From positions 1-53,367 of IMG/VR virus record IMGVR_UViG_3300034158_000030: a stretch of 53,367 nucleotides of DNA. One strand, 5' to 3'. The stretch's first letter is position 1. The number at the start of each line of letters is the position of its first letter. Of the stretch, positions 17,700 to 18,461 are shown piece after piece. The notes below the pieces were generated by a model. It did not search any database. It worked only from the letters and a program-made list of their open reading frames with translations, and was not told the DNA's origin. A program made the translations under genes and the position numbers. Source of the DNA: a virus. Its lineage: Duplodnaviria > Caudoviricetes.

Positions 17700-18461
17700 A
17701 TGGAAAAAGCAACGATATTCGGTATTACCAAAGACCTTTTACGTCCAGACGATGCGCGCAGAGAGGTGACCTCGGACATCGCCCAGCGCGCATGGTTACT
17801 CGGCATGATCCGCCAGGAGTCGCTCCGGTATATGGGTGGCATTGCGTGGGCGCACTTGAGGGGCGCGATTCAAAGCCTGACCGGGATCACGCCGGAAAAG
17901 GTCCGCCTACTGCGTGAGCAGACCGGCGAGGGGCTCATGGCCTGCAAGAAGGCGCTAACGGCTGCGGGCGGTGATATGGAGGCTGCAAAGGAGCGGCTGC
18001 GCACGCAGGGGCAGGCGGTTGTTCGTCGTCCGGTTCAATCGCCAAGCCTGAGGGTTCAGCATGTCGACAGGGTCGGCTCTATCGAGTGGCCAGCCGACAA
18101 CCCCATGCCTGACATGCGCCAGGCCCACCGGCAGATCCGGGAGAATGAGGACGTTTATCAGAGCTACTTGATGACGGGCGATCCCGTTACGCGTGATCGG
18201 CCTAGCGATCCGTTTATGGTGATTGCGCCACGCGCGGCCATGGTCGCACAGGCCTCGCTTATGCAGTCGGCAATGCCGGCTCTTACCAGCATCGCCATGA
18301 CCGCAACTGATGTCATGTTGGCGCGCCAGGAGGCTGAGGCCCGGATTCGGCGGGCAATTCTAGAGGCTTATGACCGAGGCTACTCGGACGGCCAGAGCAA
18401 CCCGAACGGCCACAGCGATGAATCAGAGCGTGGGCGCGTAGTCGTCGAGTCTATGGCTTGA
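17700..18461 (+). CDS. Mosaic protein containing an EF-Ts N-terminal (UBA-like) domain
   Basis: [39 protein letters not shown] matches the EF-Ts signature LRxxTGxGxxxCKKAL...GD. Confidence 0.8.
   Translation: [253 protein letters not shown]

Follow-up and report, generated by a model that had tools for sequence, protein, structure and literature searches.

A homologue of the EF-Ts N-terminal domain inside a mosaic protein of a Pseudomonas-type siphophage

The gene at 17700..18461 and its EF-Ts-like domain

The DNA analysed here (hereafter the window) is the whole virus record IMGVR_UViG_3300034158_000030 of IMG/VR, 53,367 bp long, rated 100% complete and with a G+C content of about 56-62%; the virus is a siphophage of Pseudomonas type. 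The subject of this report is a plus-strand gene of the window whose product, P0001, carries in its interior a stretch resembling the N-terminal domain of elongation factor Ts (EF-Ts), the partner of elongation factor Tu (EF-Tu). The open reading frame (ORF) is present on the plus strand at the place and with the length given in an earlier note on this DNA, and the peptide quoted there corresponds to residues 63-104 of the 253-residue product. The gene and its parts are as follows.

17687..17692, plus strand: Shine-Dalgarno-like GGGGAG, 7 nucleotides 5' of the ATG, by direct reading of the sequence
17700..18461, plus strand: whole gene encoding P0001, 253 amino acids plus stop
17700..17870, plus strand: N module, residues 1-57, helical by prediction and confined to a four-member family
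17871..18029, plus strand: EF-Ts N-terminal (TS-N, UBA-like) three-helix domain, residues 58-110, with the family-specific tail QGQAVVRR
18030..18305, plus strand: variable linker, residues 111-202 (alignment A1)
18111..18305, plus strand: insert inside the linker, residues 138-202, homologous to a part of the protein P0033
18306..18458, plus strand: C module, residues 203-253, with the motif AYxxGYxDGQ(N/S)xPNG(Y/H)S...R..V

The identity of the central domain is established by several types of comparison. When P0001 was searched with phmmer against all PDB chains, the top match was E. coli EF-Ts (1efu_B, E=1.1e-6), with residues 63-106 of P0001 aligned to residues 3-46 of the E. coli protein; further EF-Ts entries came next, and histone H1 noise appeared only at E>=0.19. 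A profile built from the four-member family, i.e., P0001 and its full-length homologues P0002, P0003 and P0004, retrieved E. coli EF-Ts from the PDB at E=6e-10, as against E=0.29 for the best non-EF-Ts chain and E=0.62 for the UBA domain of ubiquilin-3. The NCBIfam model TIGR00116 (tsf) matched P0001 at E=2.6e-11; of the 293 positions of the model, the match covers only 2-47, and it scores 43.3 bits (cut-off 104.05). In Pfam, PF25025 (EF-Ts_N) was the sole family found in P0001 at E<=10 (E=9.9e-5, 22.7 bits), and a six-frame search of the window with the same model gave 25.2 bits for the domain. At that same Pfam limit, P0001 has no match to the EF-Ts core (PF00889), to the generic UBA domain (PF00627) or to L7/L12 (PF00542), while its homologue P0003 has a weak PF00627 match (E=0.0017) that lies below the cut-off. 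The earlier note had proposed an EF-Ts N-terminal domain lacking the core at about residues 63-105, embedded in unrelated sequence, and both halves of this proposal are borne out, by the tsf match together with the absence of PF00889 and by flanks that belong to no Pfam, PHROG or NCBIfam family. Judged by these comparisons, P0001 is not an EF-Ts; it is a mosaic phage protein that contains a genuine EF-Ts N-terminal domain. Since the EF-Ts core is missing, nucleotide exchange activity is not expected. A PHROG match of P0001 to a "baseplate hub" family (E=0.093) was rejected as noise.

The similarity is concentrated in the EF-Ts signature. The PROSITE pattern EF_TS_1 presumably describes this signature around TGAG(M/L)MDCKKAL, and the corresponding dodecamer of P0001 is identical at 9 of 12 positions to that of E. 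coli, TGAGMMDCKKAL, in the phmmer alignment. A signature LRExTGxG(L/M)MxCKKAL is common to bacterial EF-Ts N-terminal domains and the domain of P0001, and cellular EF-Ts fragments reach top identities to P0001 of about 56-61% among the matches listed. For a comparison by alignment column, 89 N-terminal EF-Ts-like sequences that cover the domain, and whose match begins no more than 12 residues from the N-terminus of the target, were selected from 156 proteins; because they come from the top-150 list to P0001, the set leans towards it. The P0001 family keeps almost all of the conserved EF-Ts columns, namely L71, R72, E73, T75, G76, G78, M80, C82, K83 and K84, followed by A85, L86, G91, D92, A96, E98, L100, R101 and G104. 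At position 79 the family has L, with M in 89% of the 89 EF-Ts-like sequences.

Two of the residues kept can be related to known contacts with EF-Tu. In the crystal structure of the M. tuberculosis EF-Tu/EF-Ts complex (PDB 7VMX), R13 in helix 1 of the N-terminal domain bonds with P114/E155 of EF-Tu and K24 in helix 2 with D144/D145 (PMC9529903). Residues R72 and K83 of P0001, which are invariant in the four members, align with R13/K24 of M. tuberculosis and with R12/K23 of E. coli; both residues equivalent to EF-Tu contacts are thus retained in the family. More generally, the N- and C-terminal modules of EF-Ts touch domain I of EF-Tu, and the catalytic D80/F81 (TDFV) of EF-Ts sit in its core (PMC3747624).

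Structure prediction agrees with the sequence searches. An AlphaFold2 model of residues 56-115, with a predicted local distance difference test (pLDDT) score of 74.7, consists of three helices (model residues 10-20, 24-34 and 38-53); the alignment beneath it (A3, 48 rows) is mostly made of EF-Ts N-terminal fragments, so that the model leans towards EF-Ts. In a Foldseek search of this model against the PDB, ranks 1-16 were all EF-Ts N-terminal domains (E=0.021-0.23), and E. coli EF-Ts chains superposed with a root-mean-square deviation of 0.6-1.0 Å over 44 residues at 55% identity. The E-values never reach 0.001 or below because the domain is small. UBA and NAC domains appeared from rank 17 down, and no L7/L12 chain was present among the 48 rows listed (ranks to 50). 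The earlier note had named a better fit to UBA or L7/L12 domains as the outcome that would speak against its proposal; both sequence and fold searches instead favour EF-Ts. The full-length AlphaFold2 model, built on a 4-row alignment, reached a pLDDT of 47.3 and a predicted template modelling score of 0.22 and was used for secondary structure only; within it, the N module has a pLDDT of about 35-52, and the linker is also of low confidence.

A mosaic protein and other carriers of the domain

Full-length relatives of P0001 are few. Among 5.8 billion clustered proteins, seven were found at E<=1e-3: P0001 itself, P0002 (183 amino acids), P0003 (212 amino acids), P0004 (229 amino acids) and three ordinary EF-Ts proteins. 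An exhaustive phmmer search of 1.84 billion representatives gave 844 proteins at E<=1e-3, of which only P0002 and P0004 are full-length relatives, the others matching via the domain alone; 43 of the 844 were inspected individually. GenBank phages yielded no match to P0001 at E<=1e-5, and no relative was found in viral-contig and genome-contig searches. At nine metagenome contig loci the match is confined to residues 55-128, and these are probably ordinary tsf genes. In the ESM Atlas, P0001 and one protein sharing its C module gave scores below 0.9 or unnamed clusters, the rows Ead_Ea22 and phiTE_015 (0.84) being leads only.

Within the family of four, the EF-Ts_N domain is the most conserved region. 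Mean pairwise identity is 77% over residues 58-110 and rises to 81% over residues 63-106; the C module reaches 54%, and the N module and the linker 38% each. These values indicate strong purifying constraint on the domain and would fit a partner that barely changes. The tail that follows it, QGQAVVRR, is invariant in the family and is not found in EF-Ts, where a lysine/alanine-rich linker comes after the N-terminal domain. The arrangement differs from that of EF-Ts in other respects too: in E. coli EF-Ts (residues 1-54, 1EFU chain B) the domain is N-terminal, whereas that of P0001 is internal, and EF-Ts possesses core, dimerisation and C-terminal modules that P0001 lacks.

The protein as a whole is a mosaic of N module, EF-Ts_N domain, variable linker and C module. 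The N module has no match in Pfam, PHROG or NCBIfam, and its invariant residues in alignment A1 include M1, A4, F7, R21, E22, A28, Q29, A31, L33, G35, L42, A51 and R54. The linker spans 22-67 columns of the same alignment in P0002-P0004, all three of which have gaps in place of the insert at residues 138-202. This insert is homologous to residues 34-97 of P0033, a protein of 190 amino acids that is otherwise unrelated to P0001 (E=6.3e-7, 48% identity).

The C module is shared more widely. A profile search retrieved six small proteins with other heads (P0157-P0161 and P0163; E=6.5e-10 to 2.1e-8), one of them named "hypothetical protein [Pseudomonas helleri]". These small Pseudomonas phage and prophage proteins have in common with P0001 their C-terminal module, but their heads consist of a coiled coil, a phrog_343-like part or nothing, and they lack the EF-Ts_N domain. 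In an alignment of the C module from ten proteins, 15 columns are invariant and all of them are present in P0001; at the five nearly invariant columns P0001 departs at four (N75, Y80, D87 and K88), the fifth, L62, varying in another member. The P0001 copy is the most divergent of the ten, with S for N, H for Y and GR for DK. The module also occurs near the N-terminus of gp48 of Pseudomonas phage DDSR119, and a copy in a Pseudomonas metagenome-assembled genome lies in a prophage early region together with DNA methyltransferases, a nucleoid-associated protein, an excisionase and an integrase. The motif has no Pfam or PHROG family match; it is an unannotated module that is widely distributed among early-region proteins of Pseudomonas phages and prophages. 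As an observation in its own right, a motif of roughly 35 amino acids, AYxxGYxDGQNSPNGYSxxxDRDKCV, is carried on at least four different N-terminal parts (window 18306-18458, L003 23323-24096, L014 6001-6387).

The EF-Ts_N domain, for its part, is found on several other proteins that are not EF-Ts. Eighteen shorter domain matches were examined, and several of them proved not to be EF-Ts. The clearest is P0028, a metagenomic protein of 159 amino acids in which a coiled coil is followed by EF-Ts_N, an AVVRR tail and a zinc ribbon of the Lar restriction-alleviation type; this last part matches PF14354 (32.0 bits, cut-off 28.6), TIGR03655 (34.8 bits, below its cut-off of 39.6) and phrog_599. P0028 has the EF-Ts_N domain and AVVRR as in P0001 (59% identity over query residues 53-111), but neither the N module nor the AYxxGYxDGQ C module, and by its sequence it is a second phage-type architecture bearing the same domain. 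P0027 (241 amino acids) shows an internal duplication with two diverged tandem copies of the domain, and P0026 (195 amino acids), which is apparently cut, has three tandem EF-Ts_N copies followed by about 30 residues. This tail looks TIR-like by eye; the cut protein has no Pfam TIR match and longer relatives were not found, so it is a lead only. In P0087 the domain is joined to HEAT repeats and in P0096 to a coiled coil. The presence of the domain on several non-EF-Ts proteins suggests a portable docking module. A set of longer proteins, P0008-P0023 (597-1175 amino acids), had also been considered as new fusions and was rejected, as all 16 carry the EF_TS core; most of them also have S1 domains and two N-domain copies and are EF-Ts polyproteins, their high scores arising because the two N-domain copies add up.

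Fragments of EF-Ts have been noted in phages before. Gp247 of Caulobacter phage Colossus (98 amino acids) is described as subdomain N of the EF-Ts core with the catalytic Phe (PMC3556154), and gp21 of Lactococcus Ceduovirus as resembling the C-terminal part of EF-Ts (PMC7150918). Like P0001, both are phage genes with only a part of EF-Ts, and for both a putative effect on EF-Tu or translation has been proposed (PMC3556154, PMC7150918). By their descriptions, neither has the N-terminal domain or a mosaic structure, in contrast to P0001, which has both. These two fragment notes were the only ones found when the literature was searched for phage EF-Ts N-domain proteins; no earlier description of the P0001 architecture was found in the literature searched, and it is a new mosaic phage architecture.

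What the domain may do

The reading that we put first, and on which we are evenly divided, is that P0001 attaches to host EF-Tu at domain I, where it does not catalyse exchange, and serves its remaining modules as a tether or adaptor. The phage would have captured an EF-Ts N-terminal domain from which the core, with the TDFV needed for GDP expulsion, has been lost and in which the face towards EF-Tu domain I has been kept. The domain would then dock P0001 on host EF-Tu with no recycling of EF-Tu, and the tether would place its N module and its shared C module at EF-Tu, or else deliver EF-Tu to the partner of these modules. Docking is suggested by the EF-Ts-specific similarity, the retained contact residues, the top constraint on the domain within the family and its recurrence on unrelated phage-type modules; EF-Tu binding itself, the adaptor role and any consequence for translation or defence are what we infer from these. 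A complex prediction for P. aeruginosa EF-Tu (Swiss-Prot) and family residues 1-115, run without controls, gave values of 0.07 and 0.16 for the interface score ipSAE, compared with a mark of 0.32, and weighs on neither side.

Several points weigh against this reading. The family has four members only. Position 77 is E in the family and A in 74% of the 89 EF-Ts-like sequences, and position 81 is A, H or S in the family and D or E in 92% of them, so that the family departs from EF-Ts at two well-conserved columns. A 57-62-residue extension precedes the domain, which in EF-Ts stands at the very N-terminus. In EF-Ts, moreover, the N-terminal domain is one of several regions that contact EF-Tu; others are the core and the C-terminal module (PMC3747624, PMC9529903). 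Finally, the PF25025 score of P0001 is under the Pfam gathering cut-off of 33.2 bits. This last objection is weakened by a control on 14 well-known genomes, in 8 of which PF25025 detects a match and in only one of these 8 exceeds its cut-off: a sub-threshold score is thus normal for bacterial EF-Ts, and threshold-based annotation misses most isolated bacterial and phage TS-N domains. The PF25025 model, it may be observed, is built on mitochondrial EF-Ts.

Alternatively, the domain could be a generic UBA-like interaction or oligomerisation module whose contact with EF-Tu has been lost, P0001 acting elsewhere through its N and C modules. This is unlikely, although a real share of our doubt goes to it: UBA-like folds have many partners, UBA and NAC domains come directly after EF-Ts in the Foldseek ranking, positions 77 and 81 depart from the EF-Ts consensus, and the heads with which the C module is combined are very diverse, coiled coils and a phrog_343-like part included. 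The similarity found in sequence is, however, specific to EF-Ts and does not extend to UBA domains in general, the family shows no variation at R72, at K83 or in almost all of the EF-Ts signature, and the conservation of the domain is far above what a mere scaffold would need.

A special case of docking on EF-Tu, with a defined purpose, would be a role as shield or decoy against host defence: bound to domain I, P0001 would guard EF-Tu against a defence protease such as Lit or the caspase-like enzyme of type IV Thoeris, a system on which a bioRxiv preprint is said to exist, or would disturb Avs7 complexes. We regard this as quite improbable. Lit and type IV Thoeris do cleave EF-Tu and Avs7 does use it as a scaffold, but EF-Tu amounts to 6-10% of the E. 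coli proteome, which makes stoichiometric shielding demanding, and Avs7 binds domains II and III of EF-Tu, not domain I (PMC12803255). In keeping with such a role, the sister architecture P0028 couples the domain to a Lar restriction-alleviation module. The P0001 gene also lies in an accessory block that varies between the window phage and its two closest relatives, and variable accessory blocks are a common location of counter-defence genes.

Modulation of translation would be another outcome of binding, the domain competing for the site on helix D of EF-Tu that EF-Ts and L7/L12 use and damping host translation via exchange or ribosome recruitment; the EF-Tu-binding hairpin of EF-Ts and L7/L12 is reportedly the topic of an article by Kothe et al. 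from 2004, going by its title in the references of PMC3299993. An alpha-hairpin that binds EF-Tu is common to EF-Ts and L7/L12 (Wieden et al. 2001, cited by PMC4739770), and with the core absent any binding would be non-productive. We nonetheless give this reading a low probability, given that the phage itself needs translation, that titration is unlikely in view of the abundance of EF-Tu, and that the N and C modules, although conserved, would be left without a role.

L7/L12 contacts several translational GTPases, and the domain might, like the C-terminal domain of L7/L12, bind one other than EF-Tu (EF-G, IF2, RF3, or a GTPase encoded by the phage or by a defence system). The hairpin common to L7/L12 (PMC4739770) would allow for this, but it is very unlikely, as all specific similarity is to EF-Ts, with no L7/L12 match in Pfam at E<=10 and no L7/L12 chain in the 48 Foldseek rows listed.

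Returning to docking on EF-Tu, a broader and distinctly tentative extension is that the EF-Ts N-terminal domain is a portable "EF-Tu hook", captured repeatedly by phages and fused to unrelated effectors in order to seize, guard or read out EF-Tu with respect to Lit, type IV Thoeris and Avs7. The contexts of such a hook might, just as speculatively, comprise the Pseudomonas C module, the Lar-type zinc ribbon, tandem arrays and possibly a TIR-like domain on the defence side. If this were true, P0001 would belong to a class of phage accessory proteins directed at EF-Tu that has not been described so far. The hook stays the same while the heads and tails around it change from protein to protein, which suggests that the system is modular and its parts exchangeable. 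EF-Tu is the most abundant translation factor, and P0001 is a simple and testable handle on the engagement of EF-Tu by a DNA phage. Should it bind, its domain could be a minimal EF-Tu ligand; should it not, a translation-factor domain has been re-used for something else.

Phage genome, relatives and neighbouring genes

Two further features of the window are referred to below.

9760-12270: primase (PHROG)
29429-30117: four tRNA genes, Asp-GTC, Gly-TCC, Ser-GCT and Arg-TCT (Rfam tRNA, 45.6-69.6 bits, cut-off 29)

PHROG scans of 42 ORFs of the window recovered terminase, portal, head-morphogenesis protein, decoration protein and capsid, as well as a tail-appendage protein, an endolysin and a spanin. 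A minus-strand block for replication and recombination comprises a helicase, a RecE-like exonuclease, a dUTPase, a single-stranded DNA-binding protein and a Sak4-like protein. The P0001 gene belongs to a long series of plus-strand ORFs, most of them unassigned, that extends from about 12.3 to 23 kb, and the window also holds a ParB-like gene, a polymerase-exonuclease-like gene and the four tRNA genes. The label "early protein" given to the product in the earlier note is a guess from the position of the gene between the primase and the ParB-like gene. A promoter scan found 4 sites, with 3.7 expected.

The nearest GenBank phages are Pseudomonas phages Torfinnsbu (host P. poae) and DDSR119 (host P. 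putida), whose capsid proteins are 73.5% and 70.8% identical, respectively, to that of the window phage and whose primases are 58-59% identical. Both have the same order of primase, long hypothetical block and ParB-like gene; on account of these nearest phages and the shared layout, the host of the window phage is probably a Pseudomonas. Of the ORFs in this block of the window, only some are shared with the two relatives. In tblastn comparisons at E<=10 with 30-kb stretches of Torfinnsbu and DDSR119, the P0001 gene gave C-module similarity only. The lack of the gene in these two phages and of any match in GenBank phages places it in a variable accessory region.

The earlier note had further suggested that P0001 might work with tRNA mimics. 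This part finds no support: the only RNA genes found are four ordinary tRNAs; their cluster lies 11 kb downstream of the P0001 gene, past the ParB-like and exonuclease genes. tRNA-Asp was missed at the gathering threshold with default filters and scored 63.7 bits with laxer ones, and the 258-nucleotide gap at 29506-29762 contains nothing tRNA-like.

Some neighbouring genes deserve mention. The upstream ORF at 17217-17684 encodes 155 amino acids, stops 15 nucleotides before the ATG of the P0001 gene and has a hydrophobic C-terminal stretch that by eye resembles a membrane anchor; it has no family match in Pfam, PHROG and NCBIfam scans. Two genes downstream of P0001, the ORF at 18874-19671 has, by eye, a DGVPRDLLERAA-like N-terminal stretch and QPAPVSV as in Torfinnsbu CDS0067 (L002 23362-24339), and no tblastn match at E<=1e-3 to the Torfinnsbu and DDSR119 stretches. 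At 1.7 kb downstream, the product of the ORF at 20137-20913 shares 47-55% identity, across about 175 residues, with a Torfinnsbu hypothetical protein and with DDSR119 gp35, which is annotated in its record as a guanosine nucleotide pyrophosphohydrolase; the ORF has no Pfam match at E<=0.01 and may be a nucleotide-signalling gene. Lastly, the minus-strand ORF at 30249-31520 (423 amino acids), between the tRNA cluster and the packaging genes, matches tail and minor-tail PHROGs (e.g., phrog_16348, E=1.4e-22), although both its position and its strand are unusual for a protein of tail type.

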